This document shows, piece after piece, positions 16,978 to 31,496 of a stretch of 64,000 nt of DNA (position 1 is its first letter; each line of letters opens with the position of its first letter). The notes beneath the pieces were generated by a model, which saw nothing but the letters and a program-made list of their open reading frames with translations, was not told the origin of the DNA and did not search any database. The translations under genes and the position numbers were made by a program. Origin of the DNA: an uncultured Bacilli bacterium (GTDB lineage Bacteria; Bacillota_I; Bacilli_A; RF39; UBA660). The DNA is taken from NCBI GenBank assembly GCA_944372455.1, contig CALVZF010000001.1:1815-65814 (forward strand). The letters run 5' to 3'.

Positions 16978-17117
16978 TATTTGGGTTATTGACATATAAT
17001 GTGTTAATAATCTTTTTATTTGTAAAAATTATCATTTTAACTTTTTTTTACTTGAAAATGCTTTTTATATATAATATAATTTAAATAGTATTAAAGTAGA
17101 GAATGGTGGGATTTCCA

Positions 17118-18956
17118 ATGACTAATAAAAGTGGTTTTTTTGGAATAAGAGAAATATATGCTTCATTTATATTAGTAGCTACTATGATATTTGTTTCCAT
17201 TTTTTCTTCAATGGCTGTATTTCAAAAGACAGTAGAAAAAGTAGGAGTTGCTTCATTAGTTGCTAATAATGTTAATCAAGTTTTATCTTCAACTGAAAGC
17301 TCATTTGTTTTATCAACAGATAAAACTTATGGAACTATTTTGGTTTCTTCTGGTAGTAGTAAATTTTTTGATATTACTATTACTAACGATAAAAATATAA
17401 ATACAAAGTATAAACTTTATTATAGGTTTACTTCTGGAGTTACAGTTTTGGATGTAGAGGTTGGTGTTTCTGATCAAAGTTTGAATAGTTCAAGTGCTAG
17501 TTTAAATAAATCTGGAAATGATGGTAATTCAAAAGTAGTTAGAGTTGGTATAAGAAATACTTCTAATCAAGATGTATCTATAGATATTGGTTCTCAAGGT
17601 GGATATGAAAATAATGAAGTTATATTACTTTCTGGAAGAAATGAAATGGGTACAATTTTAGAAAGTTATAAAGATAGTAGTGGAGCAAATTCACCAAAAT
17701 TAGCAAGCGGAATGATACCTGTAATTTATGATTCTGATAATGATAAATGGTTAAAAGCAGATGTTACAAGCGAGTGGTATGATTATGATAATCAATGGTG
17801 GGCTAATGCAGTAACAGTAACAAGTGATACTAGATCTACTTATCAAAGTGCTAGTCCATTAACTGAAATAAGTATGGATGATATCAATACTATGTGGGTA
17901 TGGATTCCAAGGTACAAATATAAAATTCCATGTGATATAGGTAGTAGTTCATCAATTGCTAGTCCACCAGAAATAGATGTAATATTTGAAAATGGTGTAG
18001 ATACCACGGGAGAAGAATTAGCAGATTGTCCAATAACATCAACAAGTTGTTATTATACTCATCCAGCATTTAGAGATGGAAGTAGTGTATATAAAACAAT
18101 AGCTTACGATCAAGGAGGTTGGGATAAAGAATTAGAAGGAATATGGGTAGGAAAATTTGAAATGGGCGGTAATAATACAACCCCAATAATAAAACCTAAT
18201 GAAATAACACTAAAAATTCAAGATGTAAGTACTCAATTTGATACATCATTAAAGTTTGCCGGTGGATCAAGAAATACAAGTAACGGAGCAATAACATTTT
18301 CAGGAAATAATATATATGGATTAACAAGTAGTACTGATACCCATATGATGAAAAATACTGAGTGGGGAGCAGTGGCTTACCTTTCGCAAAGTAAATATGG
18401 AAAGATGGGAAATTCAAATTATAGTGGGACAGATAAAGAAATTTATAAAAATAATAGTAGTACATATACAGGAAGAAGTAGCGGAAGTCCAAATGGTTCA
18501 GCTAATATTTATTCTTATAATGATACTATTTGTTCTGATACTTCCTGTGATGGGTCCAAGGTATTAAATAAAGGTACGGGGGCAAGTACTACAGGAACTA
18601 TATATGGTATTTATGATATGCACGGGGGAGCAAATGAATATATAATGAGTAACTGGGAAAATGATGTAAACATATCTGGATTTGATACAAATAATTTACC
18701 TGGGGGAAGTAATGGAAGCAAATATTACGAAAAATACACAGGATCTAATTCATCAATTGATGTAAATAATGCAATAAAAGGAGACGCAACATATGAGGTA
18801 AATAACTGGTATTTTGATTATAAGATAGATTCTGTCATTATTAGTTGGATTAATCGTGGATCAGGCTATGATGATAGCGATGGAGGAATTTTTGCATACG
18901 GTTCTTATGATGGTTATTCTGGTATAAATTCTACTCATGTAGTCTTGATTCCGTAA
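17118..18956 (+). CDS. membrane-anchored protein with FGE-sulfatase (SUMF1/EgtB/PvdO)-like domain
   Basis: N-terminal hydrophobic segment (possible degenerate pilin-like signal G-FFGIRE). C-terminal motifs resemble the FGE family (TEWGAVAYLSQSKYG; GIYDMHGGANEY vs YDMSGNVWEW). Confidence 0.4.
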   Translation: MTNKSGFFGIREIYASFILVATMIFVSIFSSMAVFQKTVEKVGVASLVANNVNQVLSSTESSFVLSTDKTYGTILVSSGSSKFFDITITNDKNINTKYKLYYRFTSGVTVLDVEVGVSDQSLNSSSASLNKSGNDGNSKVVRVGIRNTSNQDVSIDIGSQGGYENNEVILLSGRNEMGTILESYKDSSGANSPKLASGMIPVIYDSDNDKWLKADVTSEWYDYDNQWWANAVTVTSDTRSTYQSASPLTEISMDDINTMWVWIPRYKYKIPCDIGSSSSIASPPEIDVIFENGVDTTGEELADCPITSTSCYYTHPAFRDGSSVYKTIAYDQGGWDKELEGIWVGKFEMGGNNTTPIIKPNEITLKIQDVSTQFDTSLKFAGGSRNTSNGAITFSGNNIYGLTSSTDTHMMKNTEWGAVAYLSQSKYGKMGNSNYSGTDKEIYKNNSSTYTGRSSGSPNGSANIYSYNDTICSDTSCDGSKVLNKGTGASTTGTIYGIYDMHGGANEYIMSNWENDVNISGFDTNNLPGGSNGSKYYEKYTGSNSSIDVNNAIKGDATYEVNNWYFDYKIDSVIISWINRGSGYDDSDGGIFAYGSYDGYSGINSTHVVLIP

Positions 18957-19839: not shown

Positions 19840-19890
19840 CAAACAATTGTTCGCAAAACTCTTGACACGAACGTGTGTTCGGTATAGAAT
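19840..19890. promoter_or_regulatory. two LexA (Cheo/SOS) boxes in a divergent promoter region: CGAACGTGTGTTCG (19868-19881) and CAAACAATTGTTCG (19840-19853)
   Basis: Perfect CGAAC-N4-GTTCG palindrome lies in the 17 nt spacer between TTGACA (19862-67) and TAGAAT (19885-90). A second, one-mismatch box overlaps the likely lexA promoter. Confidence 0.7.
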
Positions 19891-19916: not shown

Positions 19917-20069
19917 ATGTTAAATAATGTTTTGAAACAAAGAAAGGAATTATTTTTATTTTTATTAATGTTTATTCTATTTGCATATTTTGCTGTAATT
20001 CGTGTAGATCATTTAGAAAATGGATATATTAACCATGAAAATATTATAGAAATGGTGTATAATAAATGA
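19917..20069 (+). CDS. small membrane protein, putative SOS-induced gene (YneA-like position, no LysM)
   Basis: 50 aa ORF with one TM helix, immediately downstream of the Cheo-box promoter and divergent from lexA. Confidence 0.35.
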   Translation: MLNNVLKQRKELFLFLLMFILFAYFAVIRVDHLENGYINHENIIEMVYNK

Positions 20070-20245
20070 AAGAAAATGTTTTAAGATTTTTTAATGGTAA
20101 CATTTTAAGAAATAAAATCATGGTTAAACTTTGGGATGACAAACAACAAAAATGGTATTTTGAAGTTATTAATGTGAAAAAAGAAGAAGCTAATGCTATA
20201 ATTAGTTATGATGAATTATTAAATAGGAGTAAGCATAAGAAATAA
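20066..20245 (+). CDS. small hypothetical protein
   Basis: 59 aa ORF whose start overlaps the stop of the previous ORF (ATGA). Confidence 0.3.
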   Translation: MKENVLRFFNGNILRNKIMVKLWDDKQQKWYFEVINVKKEEANAIISYDELLNRSKHKK

Positions 20246-20256
20246 GAGGCGGTAGT

Positions 20257-21093
20257 ATGATAACTATTAAAAATAGTTCTATTAATTTAAAAGATACAAT
20301 TACTTGTGGACAATGTTTTAGATTTTTTGAGGAAGAAGATAATAGTTTTACTATTATTTTGAGTGATAGAGTTATAAACATTAAGCAAGTTGATAATGAA
20401 TTAATTATTATTTCAAATAATGAAGATAATTTAGAAAATGTTATTAAAGAATATTTTGATTTAAATACTAATTATGATGAAATTAATAAATATTTGTTAT
20501 CATTAGATGATAAGTTAAAAGAGGCTATTACAGATTCTAAAGGTTTTAAAATATTAAGACAAGATCCTTTTGAAATGTTGATTTCCTATATAATATCTCA
20601 AAATAACAATGTAAAAAGAATAATGAAATCTGTAGATAAATTAGCTTTGAAGTATGGGGAAAAAAGTGAATTTAACAATAAGATATATTACTTATTTCCT
20701 AAATACGAAAAATTAAAAGATATATCAATAGATGATTTAAAAGATATTGGTGTAGGTTTTAGAGATTCATACATTATAAATGCATTAGACCTTATTAAAA
20801 ATAATACTATTAATTTGGATAAAATAAATGACATGAGTACTGATGAAGCGCTAAGTTATTTAGAATTAATAAAAGGGGTAGGTCCTAAAGTGGCTTCTTG
20901 TATTCTACTTTTTTCTTATCATAAATATGATGTTTTTCCTGTGGATACTTGGGTTACTAAAGCTATGTTAGTACTTTATCCTAATATTGAATCAAATCAA
21001 AACAAAATTATAGAGTTTGCAAAAGAAAAATATGGTATTTATTCTGGAGTTGCACTTCAATATATGTATCATTATATGAGAAATTTGAAATAA
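20257..21093 (+). CDS. HhH-GPD DNA glycosylase (Ogg/AlkA-like, 8-oxoguanine glycosylase candidate)
   Basis: OGG-like N-domain, HhH-GPD motif with catalytic Asp (GVGPKVASCILLFSYHKYDVFPVDTWV). Confidence 0.6.
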   Translation: MITIKNSSINLKDTITCGQCFRFFEEEDNSFTIILSDRVINIKQVDNELIIISNNEDNLENVIKEYFDLNTNYDEINKYLLSLDDKLKEAITDSKGFKILRQDPFEMLISYIISQNNNVKRIMKSVDKLALKYGEKSEFNNKIYYLFPKYEKLKDISIDDLKDIGVGFRDSYIINALDLIKNNTINLDKINDMSTDEALSYLELIKGVGPKVASCILLFSYHKYDVFPVDTWVTKAMLVLYPNIESNQNKIIEFAKEKYGIYSGVALQYMYHYMRNLK

Positions 21094-21171
21094 ACATTTT
21101 AGTTTATTTTTTTAATGTTTTAAAAGTGTTTTAAATTTTGTTTACGACTATTATTATTGGGGAGGTAAAAT

Positions 21172-23286
21172 ATGAAAAAAAGAATAATAGTCATTAAACA
21201 AGAAGGTGTAAAAGACTGTGGAGTAGCTTCTTTACTTTCTATAATTAAATATTATGGTGGAAATATTGGTATAGAAAGATTAAGAGAAGAAACAAAAACT
21301 ACTAAGAATGGTACTACTGCTTTTCATTTAATTGATTATGCAAATAAAATAGGATTTAGTTCTAAAGGAATAAAATGTGCAGATATAAATGACTTGAAAT
21401 CTATCACTCTTCCTGCAATTGCTCATTTAGTTATCAATAAATCATATAAACATTATGTAGTAATTTATAAAGTAGATTTTAAACATAATGTAATAACAAT
21501 TATGGATCCTGCCTATGGTGTTAAGAAATTAACTTTTAAAGAGTTTAATAATATTTGGTCAAAAGTTATTATAACTTTTTATCCAATTGGTAAGATATCA
21601 AAATATGAGCAAAATAATAAAATTTATTCCTTAATCAAAAATATTCTTTTATCAAATAAAAGATTAATTTTTTGTACCATTATATTATCAATTTTTGTAA
21701 TAGGGTCAAATATTGTTAATTCTTATTATTTTAAAATTATAATTGATAATTTTTTTGGTAATTCTTTTTATAGTTTTTGTTTTATATCATTTATATTTGC
21801 TTTAATAATATTTTTAAAATTAATAAGTGATTATTTTAGAAATAAATTACTATTTAGCCTTCAACAAAAAATTGATTTTAATTTAATAACCACTTCTTTT
21901 AAACATATTATTAACCTCCCATATAACTATTTTAAAAACCATACTTCTGGAGAATTAATATCGAGAATTAACGATTTAAACTATATTAAAGAAATACTTA
22001 GTAAAATAATACTCAATGTTTTTTTAGATTCTATAATGATAATTTTTATTGCTATTATTTTATTTAATATTAATTTAAAATTATTTATTATAACTATCTT
22101 TATGTGTATGTTATATCTATTGATTGTTATTATCTTTTCTAAACTTTTTAAAAAACAAATTTTAATTTCTCAGATAAAATTTTCTAAAACTAATTCTTAC
22201 ATGTTTGAATGTACTAATGGGTTTGAAACAATAAAAAATATGAATTTAGAGAACAAAATTACTAATAATTTTGAAAATAAATATGTAGATTATCTAGGAC
22301 ATGAATACAAAGTTAGAAATTATAATAATATACAACAATTTTTTAAGAGTTTAATAAATGATATTGGTTCTTTAATAATTCTTTTTACAGGATATGTTTT
22401 AGTACTTCAAAACAAATTAAGTTTAGGGGAACTTATAACTTTCAATGTACTTTTATCATATTTTGTAAATCCTATAAGAAATATTCTTGATTTGGAGCCA
22501 TTAGTTAGATATGCTTTATCATCTTTAAAAAGAATTAATGAAATCTTTGAAATCAAACAAGAAAATCTATGTATTGATAATAAATATAGCGGTTGTAATA
22601 TTAAAGGAGAACTAGAGTTTAAAGGTCTTACATTTTCTTTTAATGATAAAGATAATATTCTAAATAATATAAATCTTAAAATTAGAAAAGGAGAGAGAAT
22701 AGCTATTATTGGTAAAAGTGGGTGTGGAAAATCTACTATGTTAAAATTGATTTTAAGATATAATGATATTAAAAGAAATATGATTTTTATTGATGGTAAA
22801 GATATTAATGATTATAATCTTAAAGAACTTAGAAATAATATTACATATGTATCACAAAACGAAGTATTGTTTAATGATACTATAATGAATAATATTTTGA
22901 TTAAAAATAATTTAGATTATGATACTTTTTTAAATAAGTGTAAATTAACTTTAGTAAATAATATTTGTAACAATAAATATTTAGGTTATGATACTTTATT
23001 AGAGGAAAATGGATTTAACTTATCAGGTGGAGAAAGAGAAAGAATAATTCTTTGTAGGGCTCTTACCAAAAATTCTAATTTAATTATTTTAGATGAAGCT
23101 TTAAATCAAATTGATGTAGATATGGAAAGAAAGATTTTGAAAAATTTATTTAGTTTGACTTTACACAAAACTATTATTGTTGTTTCACATAGGTTAGAAA
23201 ATTTAGATTTATTTGACAGAATTATAACAATGGAAAACGGGAATATCAAAAAAACAAATAAGAGAAGAGTTTATATTAATGGATGA
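21172..23286 (+). CDS. peptidase-C39 ABC transporter (bacteriocin/peptide exporter, ComA/LagD-like)
   Basis: N-terminal C39 domain with catalytic Cys (GVKDCGVASL), 6 TM helices, Walker A GKSGCGKST, signature LSGGERER. Confidence 0.9.
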   Translation: MKKRIIVIKQEGVKDCGVASLLSIIKYYGGNIGIERLREETKTTKNGTTAFHLIDYANKIGFSSKGIKCADINDLKSITLPAIAHLVINKSYKHYVVIYKVDFKHNVITIMDPAYGVKKLTFKEFNNIWSKVIITFYPIGKISKYEQNNKIYSLIKNILLSNKRLIFCTIILSIFVIGSNIVNSYYFKIIIDNFFGNSFYSFCFISFIFALIIFLKLISDYFRNKLLFSLQQKIDFNLITTSFKHIINLPYNYFKNHTSGELISRINDLNYIKEILSKIILNVFLDSIMIIFIAIILFNINLKLFIITIFMCMLYLLIVIIFSKLFKKQILISQIKFSKTNSYMFECTNGFETIKNMNLENKITNNFENKYVDYLGHEYKVRNYNNIQQFFKSLINDIGSLIILFTGYVLVLQNKLSLGELITFNVLLSYFVNPIRNILDLEPLVRYALSSLKRINEIFEIKQENLCIDNKYSGCNIKGELEFKGLTFSFNDKDNILNNINLKIRKGERIAIIGKSGCGKSTMLKLILRYNDIKRNMIFIDGKDINDYNLKELRNNITYVSQNEVLFNDTIMNNILIKNNLDYDTFLNKCKLTLVNNICNNKYLGYDTLLEENGFNLSGGERERIILCRALTKNSNLIILDEALNQIDVDMERKILKNLFSLTLHKTIIVVSHRLENLDLFDRIITMENGNIKKTNKRRVYING

Positions 23287-23713
23287 AATAATTAATATTA
23301 AAGATTATAAAAATTTAGATATATTAGAGTTTAAATATACCCATAAGTATTTAATAGTCTGTTTAGTAATACTAACAATGATTGTTATAATGTTATTAAA
23401 CATTAATGTTAATTTTATGTATGAAAATAAATTGTTAGTTCAAAAGAATTGTATAATTACTTTAATTAATATTGAAGATATAGATTTATTTAATAGAGTT
23501 AACTATATTACTATAGGTAATAAAAAATATAATTTTAAAATTCAATCTTTAAGTATACCTAAAAAAGTTAATAATGATTTTTATCAAGAGTTAAGATTAA
23601 CTTTAAATAATTTTAATTCTACAGAAAATGAAGTTATACCATATAGTATAAATTATGAATCTAAAAAAGTTTTTAAAATAGTTAAAGAAATCTTTAATGA
23701 TAGGAGGGCATGA
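23279..23713 (+). CDS. small membrane protein, bacteriocin accessory or immunity candidate
   Basis: 144 aa with one TM helix; translationally coupled between the exporter and the peptide genes. Confidence 0.35.
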   Translation: MDEIINIKDYKNLDILEFKYTHKYLIVCLVILTMIVIMLLNINVNFMYENKLLVQKNCIITLINIEDIDLFNRVNYITIGNKKYNFKIQSLSIPKKVNNDFYQELRLTLNNFNSTENEVIPYSINYESKKVFKIVKEIFNDRRA

Positions 23714-23850
23714 TGTTATTAAGTAATGAACAATTATTAGAAATTGAAGGAGGTATAAATACACTTACATTTTCTGGGATACTAGGTGGAATTATTTTTT
23801 TAATTGGCATAGTATCTGGATTTGTAAGACCAATTAAATGTTCAAAATAG
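23710..23850 (+). CDS. double-glycine-leader bacteriocin precursor (peptide alpha)
   Basis: RBS TAGGAGGG; leader MMLLSNEQLLEIEGG; mature INTLTFSGILGGIIFLIGIVSGFVRPIKCSK (GxxxG-rich, cationic C-terminus). Not in the ORF track. Confidence 0.65.
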   Translation: MMLLSNEQLLEIEGGINTLTFSGILGGIIFLIGIVSGFVRPIKCSK

Positions 23851-23865
23851 GAGGTTGAAGTAAAA

Positions 23866-24033
23866 ATGGAATTAAAAAAAGAAGAATTATTAAATATAGA
23901 AGGGGGAATCAATCTTTCTGGAACCCTTATATCAGCTTTTACTAAAATTATTACTACAATATTAGATGTTGGTAGAAGTCTAGGTTCAGCACTTAGAAGG
24001 ATTAGTAGTGGTATGGTATGTCCCTTAAGTTAA
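23866..24033 (+). CDS. double-glycine-leader bacteriocin precursor (peptide beta)
   Basis: RBS GGAGG; leader MELKKEELLNIEGG; mature 41 aa peptide with a GxxxG motif and a single Cys. Not in the ORF track. Confidence 0.65.
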   Translation: MELKKEELLNIEGGINLSGTLISAFTKIITTILDVGRSLGSALRRISSGMVCPLS

Positions 24034-24091
24034 TGTGGAATATATTTATATATATTAAAAAGTATTTATTGTACTTTATATAATTTTAAAA

Positions 24092-24122
24092 GGATAATAT
24101 TTAAAAAATATTGTCCTTTTTG
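24092..24122 (+). terminator. rho-independent terminator after the bacteriocin genes
   Basis: GGATAATAT-loop-ATATTGTCC stem (one G-U pair) followed by TTTTT. Confidence 0.55.
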
Positions 24123-24143
24123 TTGAATTTAGGAAACTTTTTA

Positions 24144-24172
24144 TTGTTAATTAAAATTAGTTGTGTTATAAT
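24144..24172 (+). promoter_or_regulatory. putative sigmaA promoter of rpsU
   Basis: TTGTTA - 17 nt - TATAAT, about 30 nt upstream of the rpsU RBS. Confidence 0.4.
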
Positions 24173-24204
24173 TAAGGGCGAAACAAGAAGGGAGGGAAAC
24201 AAAA

Positions 24205-24399
24205 ATGGTACATGTATCAGTTAAAAATGATAATGTTGATGGTGCACTTAAAGTTTTTAAACAAAAATTTGCTAAAAGTGGAGTCCCTTCTGAAATCAAG
24301 AAAAGAAAACACTATGACAAACCTGGGGTAAAAAGAAGATTAGAAAAAAAAGAAGGAATTAAAAATTCTAGAAGAAATGCAAGAAAAAACAGAGACTAA
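24205..24399 (+). CDS. rpsU: 30S ribosomal protein S21
   Basis: 64 aa, highly basic, FKQKFAKSGV...KRKHYDKPGVKRR signature. Confidence 0.9.
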   Translation: MVHVSVKNDNVDGALKVFKQKFAKSGVPSEIKKRKHYDKPGVKRRLEKKEGIKNSRRNARKNRD

Positions 24400-26987: not shown

Positions 26988-28115
26988 ATGGTCTGTAATA
27001 TTAAACAAAATACTTTAATAAAGAAGATTCATAAAGATATAGATAGAAAATTTGATAAAGTTATTTATATAAATATTCAGAATTTTTCAATTAATGGCTG
27101 TGCAATCTATCAAAAGAGAAAATGTTTTTTCAAAATAACAGATGAGGATTATTTTATTAAAGAAATAAATGGTTATCTTATTTCTTATAAAGAAATTCCA
27201 ACTATGACCATATTATTTGTAAAGTATTTATCTCATTGTAAAAAATATTTAATTGCTTATAATTTTAATAATAAAGTAAAGGAGAATAGTGGCTTATTAA
27301 ATGATATACTTGTAAAGAATGATAAAACTAATATAAGAGATAAAGCAACAGATAGAGAACTTAAAAATATTTTAGATGCTTATAGTACTATTTATAGTAG
27401 AAAAAAGGTATTTAGAAGTTATTGTCCTAGTAATATATTCTTTATTGAAAGGATAAATTCAAGATTAGACAAATGGTATATGAACTGTAGTGATTTTAAA
27501 AAGTTAATTGTCATAAATGGTAAGTACAACTTTAATTTACAAAACATTTTAAAAGAAACAAAAGAATATTTTTTAAATAATAAAAATAAAAAGTATCAAT
27601 GTATTTTAAGCCAAGGTGATCCAAATACTCTAAATATTTCCTCAACACCGTGTTTTTTTGATTTAGCAACTGCTGGTTATAATCCTATAATTGGTGAATT
27701 AGCTATTACAATTATATCTACTTTAATTTATGACAATTATTTTTGCCCAAAATATCATAGTAAATCGTACTATTTACACGAACTTGCTATTGAACAGTCA
27801 AGTTTATTTGAACCTAATTTACATTATAAATATAATAAATCTAATATTTATATAAATTCCGATATAATAACAAGTGATATAAGAAAAAAATATATTTTAA
27901 GTTATTTAGAAATTTTAAAGAAAAATAATATACATATAGGAAAAGAAATTAAGTATTATATTATAATGAGATTATTGTGTGTTTTTAATGTTAGAAAAAT
28001 GTCAAAAAAAGATTATTATTATTCTCTATATTTAGTATGTTATTTTTATAAAAATATAGACAATAATTTTTATAAATCTATTAGTGATATAATTAATGAA
28101 ATGGGGTGCGTTTAA
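26988..28115 (+). CDS. protein-kinase-like (APH/ChoK-fold) small-molecule phosphotransferase
   Basis: Catalytic loop LSQGDPNTLNI (cf. HGDxHPGNIL) and metal-binding FDLATAG (cf. DFE/DxG). Confidence 0.5.
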   Translation: MVCNIKQNTLIKKIHKDIDRKFDKVIYINIQNFSINGCAIYQKRKCFFKITDEDYFIKEINGYLISYKEIPTMTILFVKYLSHCKKYLIAYNFNNKVKENSGLLNDILVKNDKTNIRDKATDRELKNILDAYSTIYSRKKVFRSYCPSNIFFIERINSRLDKWYMNCSDFKKLIVINGKYNFNLQNILKETKEYFLNNKNKKYQCILSQGDPNTLNISSTPCFFDLATAGYNPIIGELAITIISTLIYDNYFCPKYHSKSYYLHELAIEQSSLFEPNLHYKYNKSNIYINSDIITSDIRKKYILSYLEILKKNNIHIGKEIKYYIIMRLLCVFNVRKMSKKDYYYSLYLVCYFYKNIDNNFYKSISDIINEMGCV

Positions 28116-28802
28116 ATGAATAATAATTATACAGATATAATTGATGATTATATAGAAAATTTGAAAGGGGCACTAGATAATAATCTTGAATTAATTTATA
28201 TAATTGGTAGTAGTGCTACAAAAGATGTAGTTGTTGGTTGGAGTGATATAGACTGTATTATTGTTATTAGTAATTATAATTTTAATGATATAGAAACCAT
28301 TAAAAAAATTTCTAATAGTTATGATATTAAGATAGGTAATACAATTTATTCTAAAAATGAATTTGAAAAGGGATTGTTAGATCAAAAAACTATATATTAT
28401 CTTTTATTAAATCAAGAAAAAATCTTAAATATAGCTTATATAAATTCAAATTTAAAAATACCAAATATAGATTATAATAATTGTAAAAATGCGACTAAAA
28501 CACTTCTTTTTAATGATTTACATAATTGCAAGAGATTATTAACATATATGAATTTAGATAGCGGACAAGTTAAATCTTTATTTAAAAAAATATATGTAAT
28601 TATGAAATCAATTCTAATATTACATAATTATAGACCGAAAAATTATAAAGAAACTTTTAATATGTTTAGCACTAACTTTAACTATGAATATTTTGATTAC
28701 CTTAAATTTATAGAAGATTTTAAAATGAATCAAGTAGACGAAAAAAAACTTAAAAATTATGCTTTTAAATTAATAGTATATGTTACTGATAAGATTTTAT
28801 AA
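28116..28802 (+). CDS. Pol-beta-superfamily nucleotidyltransferase (ANT/Lnu/AadA-like: NTase + helical C-domain)
   Basis: GSSATKD-x6-SDIDCIIVI minimal NTase motif (GS...D.D); start codon abuts the upstream stop. Confidence 0.55.
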   Translation: MNNNYTDIIDDYIENLKGALDNNLELIYIIGSSATKDVVVGWSDIDCIIVISNYNFNDIETIKKISNSYDIKIGNTIYSKNEFEKGLLDQKTIYYLLLNQEKILNIAYINSNLKIPNIDYNNCKNATKTLLFNDLHNCKRLLTYMNLDSGQVKSLFKKIYVIMKSILILHNYRPKNYKETFNMFSTNFNYEYFDYLKFIEDFKMNQVDEKKLKNYAFKLIVYVTDKIL

Positions 28803-28830
28803 TTCATATTCCAGGGAGGTGGAAGTAGCA

Positions 28831-29976
28831 ATGAATATGCCAAGACAATTTGATGATTTTGTTACATTTTTTGATATTGGAATAGAAAATATTAATCAAG
28901 AACAGTTTAGAACTTTGTACTGTGTTATGTCCGAAACCGTGAAGAAAAGAAATAATATTACTAGATTAGCATTACAATATTTATTAGATAAAGAGAAACT
29001 TACACAAGAAGAAAAAAATATTGCAACAACTATACTTGATGATAGTTATTATCAGAAACCTAATAGATATGAACATTGTAAACTATGTTCTGATGATTTT
29101 AATAGAGAAATACTGGCAAAATATAGTAATAGATTTAGGTTTTGGGAATTGTGCTTTCCAACTGTCCCATATTTTCCTGCTAATATGATGGTATATTTAA
29201 AAAATAGACAATTTATTCATAAAGAAAATTTTCAAGATTTAACAATAGAAGAACTAGAAGAATTAAAATATATTATAAGTAATTTAAAGGAAACTTTAAA
29301 TAATAATGTATTTAATGGTGAACTTACAGGTATAAATGTTTTGTTTAATCAAATATCTAAATCACAATTATGTATTCATGGGCACATAGAGTTGATGATA
29401 AGAAATATTGATAAATTAAATTATGGATGTACTTTGCTTAAAACTAGAAATTATGACCCTGTTGTTGAGAAAATAAATAATAAAATGAAAAGAAAAACAG
29501 GAGTTATACCAACATTAGAAGGTATTAGAATAAATATGAGCAATGTTAGTGATAAAATAGCATTAGATTATATAAATGAATATGAAAATAATTTATTAGA
29601 TATTATAAGATTAGGTAATGAATTAAGAAAGGGACAGCAAAAGGTAAATGGTGATTTTGATATGCTGTTGTTGAACGGCTTGAGTCCAGCACCTACAGAT
29701 TCAATATATTTAACTGATTACAGAGGAGAGTTGTTTTTATCAGCTGTTCCTGAAATTATACCACCAACTATTAATATTTCTGAAGTTGGGGATTTAAATG
29801 ATGCAGAAAATATGTATTTAATTAAATATAATGCTACAACACCTAATAGTAAATATGCAATTATGAAAAAGTATAGTCCATTAGTTAGACCGAGTAGTAA
29901 AGTTCCTTATGAAATGTCATATACCGAAAATGTAAAAGTGTTGACAAGAAAGATAGGTGATGTATTAAATATATGA
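28831..29976 (+). CDS. hypothetical enzyme, possible HIT/GalT-like nucleotidyl transferase or phosphorylase
   Basis: H-G-H-I-E motif (CIHGHIELM) reminiscent of HxHxQ/HxHxH; otherwise no clear domain. ATG 28831 follows a GGGAGGTGGA RBS. Confidence 0.3.
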   Translation: MNMPRQFDDFVTFFDIGIENINQEQFRTLYCVMSETVKKRNNITRLALQYLLDKEKLTQEEKNIATTILDDSYYQKPNRYEHCKLCSDDFNREILAKYSNRFRFWELCFPTVPYFPANMMVYLKNRQFIHKENFQDLTIEELEELKYIISNLKETLNNNVFNGELTGINVLFNQISKSQLCIHGHIELMIRNIDKLNYGCTLLKTRNYDPVVEKINNKMKRKTGVIPTLEGIRINMSNVSDKIALDYINEYENNLLDIIRLGNELRKGQQKVNGDFDMLLLNGLSPAPTDSIYLTDYRGELFLSAVPEIIPPTINISEVGDLNDAENMYLIKYNATTPNSKYAIMKKYSPLVRPSSKVPYEMSYTENVKVLTRKIGDVLNI

Positions 29977-31496
29977 AAACTAATGAGTTAATTTATGATA
30001 AAACTTTAAAGAAAATGCTTTTTGAATATATAGAAAAATTAGACAGTTTTATTATTAATACAAGTGGATATCCAACTTCAAATTGTCAAACTAAAGGAGA
30101 AGTAAACGATGTTTTCTTCAAAAAGTTAAATACAACAAAAATAAAGAAACTTTATAGTGGTGACTATCTATCTTTGTTTAATGAGTATTATAATTTATTA
30201 CAAGGAAAAGTAAAAACAAATAAAATTATAGCGTTGCTGTATAAAGATAATGATATTTTCGAATTTTCGCAGTTAATTGATAAAGAAAAGTTTTTAGATA
30301 ATGCTAATGTTTTTCAATGGGATGATATAAGTAATCTCTTTGATATAATTCTATTAGAAATTAATGCTTGTGTTAATTATAATAAAAGTAGTAAAATAAA
30401 GTTGGGAATTGAAACAGCGATTTGGAATTTTACAATAGATGGTATTCTTTTTGATTTAGATCCACCTAAACTATTAAAGAAAACAGAAGATACAAGTTTT
30501 ACTAGAAAAGAAGATATTAATCATATTAAAAGAACAATTTATCGTAGTTTTGATGAAACAGGTATGAAAATTAACTTGCTTGTTACTTTGAAATTAGGAG
30601 AAAAACATAATAGTTTTATTATAAAAAATAAACCTGATAATTATCTAATAATTCTTTTAAAAAAAATACTTGATAGTTATACTAAAGAAGATGATAGAAA
30701 AAAATTAGTAGAAAAATTATACAATGGTGTGTCTGCAAATGAGATGTTTGTAGATCACCCTATAGAAATTTTAAGGAGGGAACTTATGATGAGAGAACAA
30801 AGTATGAATAAAGAAATAGTATTTGTTGCTGGTACTTCTGAGTCTGGCAAAAGTGGAGGAATAAACTATTTAAAAGATAAATATGATGAAATTCAACATA
30901 TAAAAATAAGAGATGTTTTTCCTAAAGTTTATGAAGATACTCAAACAAATTTATCTTTTGAAGAATGGCAAGATGTTGAAGAAAAAAGAGATTTAAATAA
31001 CTTTTGGAGATTATTTGTAAATAAGGTTTATGAAATGGCTAATCCTGAAAAAAGTATTATAATTTTAGATACAATGTACGGTGTTGATGGTATGATAGAG
31101 TTATATAAAATATTAGGTGATAAAGTTAATTTACTATATATTGATGCTCCATTCAATGATAGAGTTATGAGAGAGTATTTAAGATTAAGAACAGATTCTC
31201 CAAGAGGTACAAGAAAAGCAGATTTATCAGTAACAATAGAAGATGTAGTAGAAAGAACAATAAAAAAAGATAAGAAAAAAAATAGCAGACGTGCTAATAA
31301 ATTAAAAGAGTTACGTTATAGTGCTGACTATAAAAGTTTAGAAATAGGTGGATTAGGAGAGCAATTTACTTATTTAATTAATAATGATAGTAATATTGAT
31401 AACTTTTATTCGTCTTTAGATAAATATATTAATCATATAAAAAATAAAAGTACTGATAAATCAGATGTAGAGTTACAAAAGAGGCTAAAAAAATGA
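29973..31496 (+). CDS. two-domain protein with C-terminal P-loop kinase-like NTPase
   Basis: Walker A VAGTSESGKSG and a hydrophobic-strand-Asp Walker B candidate (IIILDTMYG); N-terminal 270 aa of unknown fold. Overlaps the upstream stop (ATGA). Confidence 0.4.
   Translation: MKTNELIYDKTLKKMLFEYIEKLDSFIINTSGYPTSNCQTKGEVNDVFFKKLNTTKIKKLYSGDYLSLFNEYYNLLQGKVKTNKIIALLYKDNDIFEFSQLIDKEKFLDNANVFQWDDISNLFDIILLEINACVNYNKSSKIKLGIETAIWNFTIDGILFDLDPPKLLKKTEDTSFTRKEDINHIKRTIYRSFDETGMKINLLVTLKLGEKHNSFIIKNKPDNYLIILLKKILDSYTKEDDRKKLVEKLYNGVSANEMFVDHPIEILRRELMMREQSMNKEIVFVAGTSESGKSGGINYLKDKYDEIQHIKIRDVFPKVYEDTQTNLSFEEWQDVEEKRDLNNFWRLFVNKVYEMANPEKSIIILDTMYGVDGMIELYKILGDKVNLLYIDAPFNDRVMREYLRLRTDSPRGTRKADLSVTIEDVVERTIKKDKKKNSRRANKLKELRYSADYKSLEIGGLGEQFTYLINNDSNIDNFYSSLDKYINHIKNKSTDKSDVELQKRLKK

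Follow-up and report, generated by a model that had tools for sequence, protein, structure and literature searches.

A candidate two-peptide bacteriocin operon beside rpsU, with relatives in many uncultured low-GC bacteria

A stretch of DNA of 64,000 nucleotides from an uncultured Bacilli bacterium (contig CALVZF010000001.1; the whole stretch is referred to here as the window) carries a compact set of four genes, all on the + strand, that appear to make and export a pair of small peptides. The first (21172..23286) encodes an exporter of 704 amino acids with C39 peptidase, six-helix ATP-binding cassette (ABC) membrane, and ATPase domains. The second (23279..23713) encodes a putative accessory protein of 144 amino acids and begins inside the end of the ABC gene, the two sharing an overlap of 8 nucleotides (ATGGATGA). 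The stop codon of the accessory gene overlaps the start of the next gene, pepA (23713..23850), in the sequence TGATG, and a spacing of 15 nucleotides separates pepA from pepB (23866..24033). pepA encodes a prepeptide of 45 amino acids, consisting of a 14-residue double-glycine leader and a hydrophobic mature part of 31 residues; pepB encodes one of 55 amino acids, with a leader of the same length and a cationic amphipathic mature part of 41 residues. All four open reading frames (ORFs) are intact and have good ribosome-binding sites. Behind pepB lies what is left of a third gene, pepC (24035..24058, + strand), seven codons reading GTG GAA TAT ATT TAT ATA TAT TAA, followed by the only terminator of the set, an intrinsic hairpin at 24088..24120 (+ strand; 15-bp stems, -13.2 kcal/mol, z = -3.0). 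Next come a promoter (TTGTTA-17-TATAAT, 24144-24172, + strand) and the gene that it serves, rpsU (24205-24399, + strand), whose product matches Pfam Ribosomal_S21. At the other end, a promoter-like element 5' of the exporter gene (TTTAAA-16-TATTAT, 21130..21157, + strand) is the putative operon promoter.

An earlier note on this DNA, made from the letters alone, had picked out the exporter, the membrane protein, the two small ORFs, and an antisense ORF. Each of these is indeed present, and the end that the note gave to the locus agrees with the terminator hairpin. The antisense ORF (23694..23912, - strand, 72 amino acids) is not a gene, as the note had suspected: the + strand ORFs that it overlaps are conserved at the amino acid level in about 76 loci, with ratios of nonsynonymous to synonymous substitution (dN/dS) well below 1. 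The description of the peptides as unannotated holds in that they fall below a 60-amino-acid ORF cutoff, but their exact sequences already exist as unnamed public gene calls (P0001 and P0002).

The exporter is the most readily classified of the four products. Its Pfam scores are far above cutoff for all three domains (C39, 120 bits; ABC_membrane, 138 bits; ABC_tran, 102 bits), while its best-scoring NCBIfam model, TIGR01193, gives 471.9 bits, below the curated cutoff of 523.85. The best homologues of known structure, PCAT1 of Clostridium thermocellum (4ry2, E = 5e-119) and ComA of Streptococcus (8hf4, E = 2e-114), align from end to end. The peptidase motifs DCG, HYVVIY, and DP fall in register with the catalytic Cys, His, and Asp of PCAT1, and the Walker A (GKSGCGKST), signature (LSGGERER), and Walker B (ILDEA) motifs of the ATPase align as well. 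Judged by its sequence, the protein is thus a peptidase-containing ABC transporter (PCAT) as these are defined, with an N-terminal C39 peptidase followed by an ABC membrane domain and then an ATPase. It shares the three-domain architecture and conserved peptidase motifs with PCAT1 and ComA but is only about 30% identical to them (by eye), scores under the TIGR01193 cutoff, and has other substrates. In a scan of genome contigs, its relatives were no more than 34% identical and belonged to unrelated phyla. Against the PCAT model of the Mycoplasma "Mbov_0121 family," on which the papers searched were uninformative, the score is 348 bits.

What distinguishes pepA and pepB from chance ORFs? When the window was scanned in all six frames with a regular expression for double-glycine leaders, these two were the sole matches, and no such ORF turned up in 200 first-order Markov shuffles of the window. 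Both leaders, called canonical in the earlier note, have the consensus residues L-12, E-8/-9, L-7, I-4, G-2, and G-1, which are kept in all homologues. At 14 residues, they are slightly shorter than the 15 to 30 of the published class IIb definition, and cleavage is predicted from the match to the consensus. The pepA ORF (23710/23713-23850) reads MMLLSNEQLLEIEGG followed by INTLTF...CSK. The ATG at 23713 is the better start, with AGGAGG 5 nucleotides upstream, the TGATG overlap, and a 45-amino-acid product as in the public calls; from it, the predicted leader is M-LLSNEQLLEIEGG and the mature 31-residue peptide INTLTFSGILGGIIFLIGIVSGFVRPIKCSK. For pepB, the leader is MELKKEELLNIEGG and the mature peptide INLSGTLISAFTKIITTILDVGRSLGSALRRISSGMVCPLS (INLSG...CPLS).

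Both mature peptides contain GxxxG motifs (GILGG and GIVSG in pepA, GRSLG in pepB) and a single Cys, as had been noticed before. The pepA GxxDG and pepB GRSLG motifs are conserved throughout the family. The signature of pepA is the leader, a Gly-rich hydrophobic helix, and an end of the form F(L/I)IG(V/I)xDG(Y/F)xRPxxC; that of pepB is the leader, then LDxGRSLG(T/S)xxRR within an amphipathic helix, and a Cys 0 to 4 residues from the end. All 51 copies of pepA and all 51 complete copies of pepB have this C-terminal Cys, and it is the sole Cys in 48/51 and 50/52 copies, respectively. The window peptides keep all the invariant residues of the family, the LDVGRSLGxAxRR motif of pepB included. Between close pairs, dN/dS for the peptide genes is 0.05 to 0.38, which marks pepA and pepB as real protein-coding genes under purifying selection. 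Mature pepA is predicted to form a transmembrane-like helix. The AlphaFold2 model of pepB has a leader helix at residues 5 to 12 and a mature helix at residues 16 to 47; the hydrophobic moment is high, and the prediction for the mature part is an extended amphipathic helix.

By sequence, only pepA touches a named family. This is TIGR03949, the class IIb family of lactobin A and cerein 7B, whose cutoff of 21.5 bits is approximately reached by 22 of 48 pepA homologues; the L005 orthologue, for example, scores 25.9 bits. The window pepB scores 17.0 bits, below that cutoff, and no other part of Pfam or NCBIfam matched pepB beyond the leader. A word-indexed protein search with pepA returned the query itself alone, and searching the literature for strings from the peptide motifs, such as GRSLGTA and DGYVRP, gave nothing relevant. 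One pepA homologue, that of L089 (895-1038), weakly matches the Mycoplasma MPN313 family (NCBIfam NF045747, E = 0.007). Together with the exporter's score against the Mbov_0121 model, this may point to related exporter/peptide pairs in Mollicutes.

The family to which the window locus belongs was assembled from a pepB search, synteny, an exhaustive HMMER search, and a metagenome scan, and the counts given here come from a profile-based tabulation. The databases hold 13 pepB homologues, with invariant GG, GRSLG, RR, and Cys. Another 71 loci came from a metagenome scan with the pepB alignment, in assemblies from human gut, rumen, digester, and sludge. The full set comprises about 76 related loci in metagenomes of the gut and of the three other habitats, with GC contents of 21 to 34%. 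On the contigs of the pepB homologues, the gene order is the same throughout, with the exporter, a protein of about 145 amino acids, then two peptides of about 45 and 55 residues in that order, and usually rpsU next. An exporter gene precedes the peptide genes in 49 of 53 assessable loci, pepA is immediately upstream of pepB in 58 of 62, and rpsU follows within 2.5 kb in 47 of 62. The gene for the 145-amino-acid protein was detected in 36 of 59, and several lineages have no space for it; pepC was detected in 42 of 72. pepA orthologues frequently start with TTG and were overlooked by the word-based search. Conservation of the double-glycine ORFs in homologous loci had been set as a test by the earlier note, and they are found always paired across the roughly 76 loci. 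No relative of the cassette was found on viral contigs, and the only plasmid matches (E = 0.2) are leader-driven ones to class IIb genes of Streptococcus suis. Going by these sequences, the peptide pair is a previously undescribed, large, and widely conserved family, confined to uncultured bacteria.

How has this cassette been inherited? Within the close group of the window, it is far more diverged than housekeeping proteins are. Identity to the window is 90 to 97% for ribosomal protein S21, 89% for LexA, 76% for RecG, and 72% for the DNA glycosylase OGG, compared with 55 to 63% for the exporter, 31 to 34% for the 144-amino-acid protein, 38 to 51% for pepA, and 65 to 72% for pepB. Divergence of the cassette follows that of the adjacent S21, with Mantel r = 0.80 for the ABC protein and 0.77 for pepB (p ~5e-4) in 24 non-redundant loci, a set in which most pairs share an S21 identity of only 40 to 60%. 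From these sequence comparisons, the cassette looks to have been inherited vertically, at a fixed site, across a wide clade.

The role of the 144-amino-acid protein has to be approached through its predicted structure. It matches nothing in Pfam or NCBIfam (19 family members searched), a profile search of the PDB gave no match, and a word-indexed protein search returned only the query. An exhaustive HMMER search of 1.84 billion sequences yielded 13 true representatives of its family plus a spurious tetratricopeptide repeat protein (P0024). The AlphaFold2 model, built on the family alignment, is confident (predicted local distance difference test, pLDDT, 84.9); it has a short cytoplasmic N terminus, a transmembrane helix at residues 20 to 40, a beta-barrel at residues 43 to 130, and a C-terminal helix, and its best structural neighbors are membrane-fusion proteins. 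Like the HlyD-type accessories of that class (MacA, Spr0693, and the ComB/LcnD type), it is predicted to have an N-terminal anchor and an extracytoplasmic beta-barrel whose last strand leads into a helix, and its gene adjoins and overlaps the ABC gene. ComB/LcnD-type accessories are roughly 450 amino acids long, compared with about 145 here; the protein is too short to accommodate the alpha-helical hairpin and lipoyl domains of those proteins, and its model contains neither. It differs from them further in having no detectable sequence similarity and in being absent from part of the peptide-pair family. Compared by hhalign with seven PCAT-adjacent accessory proteins of Pedobacter and Mucilaginibacter, of which the L009 member was checked as Pfam HlyD_3, the 144-amino-acid family scored a probability of 0.5%. 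The likeness is thus at the level of fold only, so that the protein does not belong to the HlyD family by sequence. With moderate confidence, the protein is read as an adaptor for the exporter, built like a membrane-fusion protein but severely reduced in length, which casts doubt on the earlier statement that the locus has no HlyD-like accessory. In L002, a single-base difference from the window over 23130-24200 lengthens the called product from 144 to 147 amino acids (P0017).

If the 144-amino-acid protein is an adaptor, which gene provides immunity? A better candidate appeared in the relatives. In all six syntenic relatives examined closely, the gap between pepB and rpsU (170 to 290 nucleotides) holds a further ORF of about 50 to 65 amino acids, mostly uncalled. 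The product of this gene, pepC, has a basic N terminus, a transmembrane segment, the motif IxxxGxxxGTxxR, and frequently a C-terminal Cys. A pepC profile of 21 sequences aligned with the pepB profile over 46 columns, terminal Cys included (hhalign probability, 78%; E = 1.8e-5). The same profile, searched against the 64-kb window, had pepB itself as its top match (E = 4e-5) and found no other pepC-like ORF. These matches, and the leader-bearing pepC-like core of L154 to L163 described below, point to pepC being a pepB paralogue with an uncleaved N-terminal membrane anchor in place of the leader, and it is the likely immunity protein of the family. Relative to L003, L005, and L006, the window has a deletion of about 117 nucleotides that leaves the seven-codon remnant of pepC, while the flanking terminator hairpin and rpsU promoter are preserved in the alignment. 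The earlier note could not have seen pepC because it is deleted in the window. L001 and L002, two further assemblies of this species that may not be independent samples, have exactly the same remnant. Another variation occurs in L154 to L163 from the human gut, where a third double-glycine-leader peptide with a pepC-like core, MSNEELMSVHGG followed by RLNITISYSYNSVMGYLYTLGRRIGTYFNRLFH (L154:8160-8303), takes the place of the anchored pepC; this third component is apparently exported.

Taken together, these features resemble those of the class IIb, or two-peptide, bacteriocins. As defined (PMC2850506), these have adjacent peptide genes, GxxxG (or AxxxA/SxxxS) motifs in both peptides, double-glycine leaders of 15 to 30 residues, a dedicated ABC transporter with an accessory gene, an immunity gene in the same operon, and an activity that needs both peptides. 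In the window, the peptide genes are adjacent, GxxxG motifs occur in both products, and a dedicated exporter is present with what we infer to be its accessory protein. A same-operon immunity gene is missing from the window, and relatives have a candidate for one. Adjacent prepeptide genes, predicted double-glycine leaders, and paired GxxxG motifs are shared with lactococcin G, plantaricins EF and JK, and the lactobin A/cerein 7B group, and lactococcin G likewise has its C39 ABC exporter and accessory gene in the same operon. The small hydrophobic gene directly downstream, present in relatives of the window, is a further likeness to class IIb. The differences are that pepB, pepC, and the accessory protein belong to no named family; that each peptide has one invariant C-terminal Cys, suggesting a covalent heterodimer; that one of the peptides has a paralogue in the putative immunity protein, which the window copy has lost; and that the locus is chromosomal and deeply syntenic beside rpsU.

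Two streptococcal systems and one from gut Bacteroidetes invite comparison. The class IIb arrays of S. suis plasmid pBM407 share the order of peptide, peptide, and small hydrophobic protein of about 60 amino acids but have no homology to the present family beyond the leader (34% over 44 amino acids, E = 0.2). The same order is found in CibAB-CibC of Streptococcus pneumoniae. In both systems, unlike here, the exporter is encoded elsewhere. The bacteroidetocins are similarly a double-glycine-leader toxin family widespread in the gut microbiota (PMC6671954), but they are described there as class IIa related; they come from another phylum, with a Gram-negative envelope, and are reported to target BamA (PMC8546649).

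Our favored reading is that the locus is a self-contained operon, with its own promoter, ABC exporter, accessory gene, pepA, pepB, and terminator, and that it makes and exports a membrane-active bacteriocin of the class IIb type. We would put the probability of this at roughly 60%. Several points weigh against it. No relatives of pepB beyond the leader were detected among named bacteriocins, and the window pepA, at 15.6 bits, stays below the TIGR03949 cutoff. Core-like vertical inheritance beside rpsU is unusual for bacteriocins. The window has no immunity gene, its sole candidate being the pepC remnant, and in many more distant lineages, rpsU begins only 41 to 113 nucleotides after pepB, with no space for pepC. 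Finally, extracellular disulfide formation is not assured in producers that are apparently gut or rumen anaerobes.

How might such a system work? The C39 domain would recognize each 14-residue leader and cut after the double glycine, and the exporter would translocate the mature peptide. The 144-amino-acid protein, translationally coupled to the exporter gene, would assist export as a miniature membrane-fusion-protein-like adaptor. Outside the cell, the hydrophobic pepA and the cationic amphipathic pepB would pair through GIVSG and GRSLG and would probably also be joined covalently through the invariant Cys near each C terminus. The resulting heterodimer of about 7.5 kDa would insert into target membranes, and pepC would act as the immunity protein, a producer-bound decoy of the pepA/pepB interface. 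The earlier suggestion of a class IIb-like pair, possibly linked by a disulfide, fits the conserved GxxxG motifs and the invariant single C-terminal Cys of each peptide. We found no report in the literature of a two-peptide bacteriocin with an intermolecular disulfide. A bolder version, rated as rather unlikely, is that pepA and pepB are the first disulfide-linked two-peptide bacteriocin, that pepC arose from a duplicated beta-peptide gene whose cleavable leader gave way to a membrane anchor, so that the producer is protected by a tethered decoy of its own toxin subunit, and that the system has been inherited vertically beside rpsU in a broad clade of uncultured low-GC bacteria of gut, rumen, and digesters, with repeated loss of the decoy, the window being one such case.

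The main rival to the bacteriocin reading is that the peptide pair is a conserved physiological factor of this lineage, perhaps a heterodimer that is secreted or inserted into the membrane, with a function in signaling, in the envelope, or in self-directed lysis, and that the exporter is its maturation machine. Its strength comes from the pattern of inheritance: the cassette lies upstream of rpsU in those 47 of 62 assessable loci at S21 identities down to 40 to 60%, its divergence follows that of S21, and the pepB core LDxGRSLGxAxRR is invariant across the same range. The want of an immunity candidate in the window and in many other lineages fits such a role, as do the lack of viral-contig copies and the weakness of the plasmid matches. 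A housekeeping function sits poorly, though, with the state of the exporter gene in some lineages. It is interrupted by TAA stops in L146:5717-7772 and split into two ORFs in both L003:40-2249 and L153:136-2200, pepA and pepB remaining intact in each case. Real decay and assembly errors are both possible explanations of these interruptions; because the gene appears pseudogenized or split there, the system would be accessory and dispensable. Nor does the locus have a receptor kinase or regulator linked to it, and the sole histidine kinase of the window is 15 kb away, in line with the earlier remark that no quorum-sensing two-component system is visible. Moreover, the leader, the GxxxG motifs, the pairing of a cationic amphipathic with a hydrophobic peptide, and the small hydrophobic ORF together make up the exact class IIb architecture. 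On balance, we consider the physiological role unlikely.

About equally unlikely is a second alternative, which concerns only the assignment of parts within a bacteriocin operon: that the 144-amino-acid protein, which the earlier note had called the obvious immunity candidate, does confer immunity and that pepC is something else, for instance, a third structural peptide. The protein is membrane anchored, co-transcribed, and fast evolving (27 to 34% identity while S21 is at 90 to 97%), as immunity proteins often are. The class IIb literature allows accessory proteins a role in immunity (PMC2850506). The window keeps this gene and has lost pepC, and the pepC-like peptide of L154 to L163, having a cleavable leader, would be exported. 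The fold, on the other hand, best matches the membrane-fusion adaptors that partner ABC exporters, and a minimal accessory is therefore more likely than an immunity protein. Its gene overlaps that of the exporter rather than the peptide genes, and in loci such as L133, L135, L139, L148, L151, and L152, the peptide pair occurs with no space for it. pepC, by contrast, matches the known small class IIb immunity genes in position and size, which leaves it the likelier immunity candidate of the family.

The sequence 5' of the exporter gene differs among lineages. The putative operon promoter of the window overlaps a motif, TTTACGAyTAt, that is common to L003 and L006. A different element, a box reading (G)CAGGAAT or AAAGGAAA at about -36 to -30 from the ribosome-binding site GGAG, with TAGTAT/TAGAAT about 12 nucleotides later, is found in L102, L104, L112, L116, L120, L133, L135, L138, L139, L141, L142, L145, L148, L150, and L152. 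In most other lineages, this AGGAAT-type box comes after the terminator of the upstream gene, and its spacing from the ribosome-binding site is constant; at the same position, the window has AAGTGTT and L006 has AAGTCTT. When 739 kb of related loci were scanned with a position weight matrix of the box, strong sites occurred at the cassette only. The box resembles sigma-H-type promoters, but since the strong sites are limited to the cassette, a sigma-H/ComX-like reading stays a guess.

Could the window copy be an inactive, decaying remnant? Its pepC is deleted, AAGTGTT has replaced the box of most lineages, and its pepA is the most divergent of the close group, at 38 to 51% identity to those of L003, L005, and L006, which share 71 to 80% among themselves. 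In keeping with this, dN/dS between the window and L003 pepA is 0.38, compared with 0.05 to 0.09 among the others. Still, none of the four ORFs is interrupted and each has a good ribosome-binding site, the exporter retains its catalytic and ATPase motifs, the invariant residues of pepA and pepB are all kept, and dN/dS remains below 1. Many lineages, furthermore, are naturally without pepC. Decay is accordingly rated as improbable, somewhat more so than the two alternatives above.

The last alternative concerns the SOS response. The earlier note had placed the locus directly after an SOS-controlled promoter region and a DNA glycosylase gene, and LexA boxes and ogg do lie upstream. A perfect Cheo box, CGAACGTGTGTTCG, at 19868-19881 is the sole GAAC-N4-GTTC site in the 64 kb and sits between the -35 and -10 elements of a + strand promoter (TTGACA-17-TAGAAT, 19862-19890). 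A second, near-perfect LexA box serves the divergent lexA. All LexA boxes are confined to 19840-19881, 1.3 kb 5' of the exporter gene, and none was found near the exporter gene itself. The SOS promoter drives an ORF of 50 amino acids with a single transmembrane segment (19917-20069), an ORF of 59 amino acids (20066-20245), and ogg. The 50-amino-acid membrane ORF is a candidate SOS-induced cell division inhibitor of the SosA/YneA kind, and the arrangement is conserved in L006 (58% and 64% identity). Immediately 3' of the ogg stop codon lies an AT-rich hairpin with a U-run (21087..21117, + strand), a weak terminator candidate in the window (-5.7 kcal/mol, z = -0.8) that is conserved in position and stronger in L006 (-8.0 kcal/mol, z = -4.0). 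Colicin-like induction of the operon, with transcription reading through from the LexA-controlled promoter that precedes ogg, would be in keeping with the uniqueness of the Cheo box, with the common strand of all genes from that box to pepB, and with the weakness of the ogg terminator, but it is the least probable of the readings considered here, given the hairpin and U-run after ogg in both the window and L006, the separate promoter-like element 5' of the exporter gene with no LexA box near it, and the restriction of the lexA-ogg context to the window and L006, the sole other locus with a match to ogg or lexA, other loci having other upstream neighbors. On these sequences, SOS control of the operon is not supported, and the SOS genes are neighbors rather than part of the system.

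What of the host? The window encodes a class A penicillin-binding protein beside RecU, DnaD, RNase Y, and LexA, has a GC content of 24%, and uses TGA as a stop codon; gene content, TGA usage, and GC content together point to a low-GC member of the Bacillota that has a cell wall. An alternative genetic code was considered and rejected, as TGA is the stop codon of 8 of the window's 46 long ORFs and of 46 among 309 from related loci. Two other parts of the window stand out. A protein of 617 amino acids (17103-18956), whose body is rich in Ser, Gly, and Asn and whose hydrophobic N terminus is pilin-like, matched neither Pfam nor NCBIfam, and its exact sequence is absent from a collection of 15 billion proteins. 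After recG, four consecutive + strand ORFs without a Pfam match (26988-31496; 375, 228, 398, and 507 amino acids) are followed by genes for a histidine phosphatase and a NUDIX hydrolase.

Overall, this family does not overturn current concepts. If the peptides are active, it would represent a widespread, chromosomally fixed two-peptide bacteriocin system in uncultured low-GC bacteria of the gut and rumen, a group with almost no characterized antimicrobials. It would also bring three things new to class IIb: an invariant pair of Cys residues suggesting a covalent heterodimer, a membrane-anchored paralogue of one toxin subunit as the candidate for immunity, and an adaptor of 145 residues that may reveal how small the working core of an HlyD-type accessory can be in single-membrane bacteria. 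The window genome, having lost pepC naturally, provides a ready-made test of pepC function. And if the peptides are not antibacterial, the deep conservation of the cassette beside rpsU would point instead to a physiological use of PCATs that has so far gone unrecognized.

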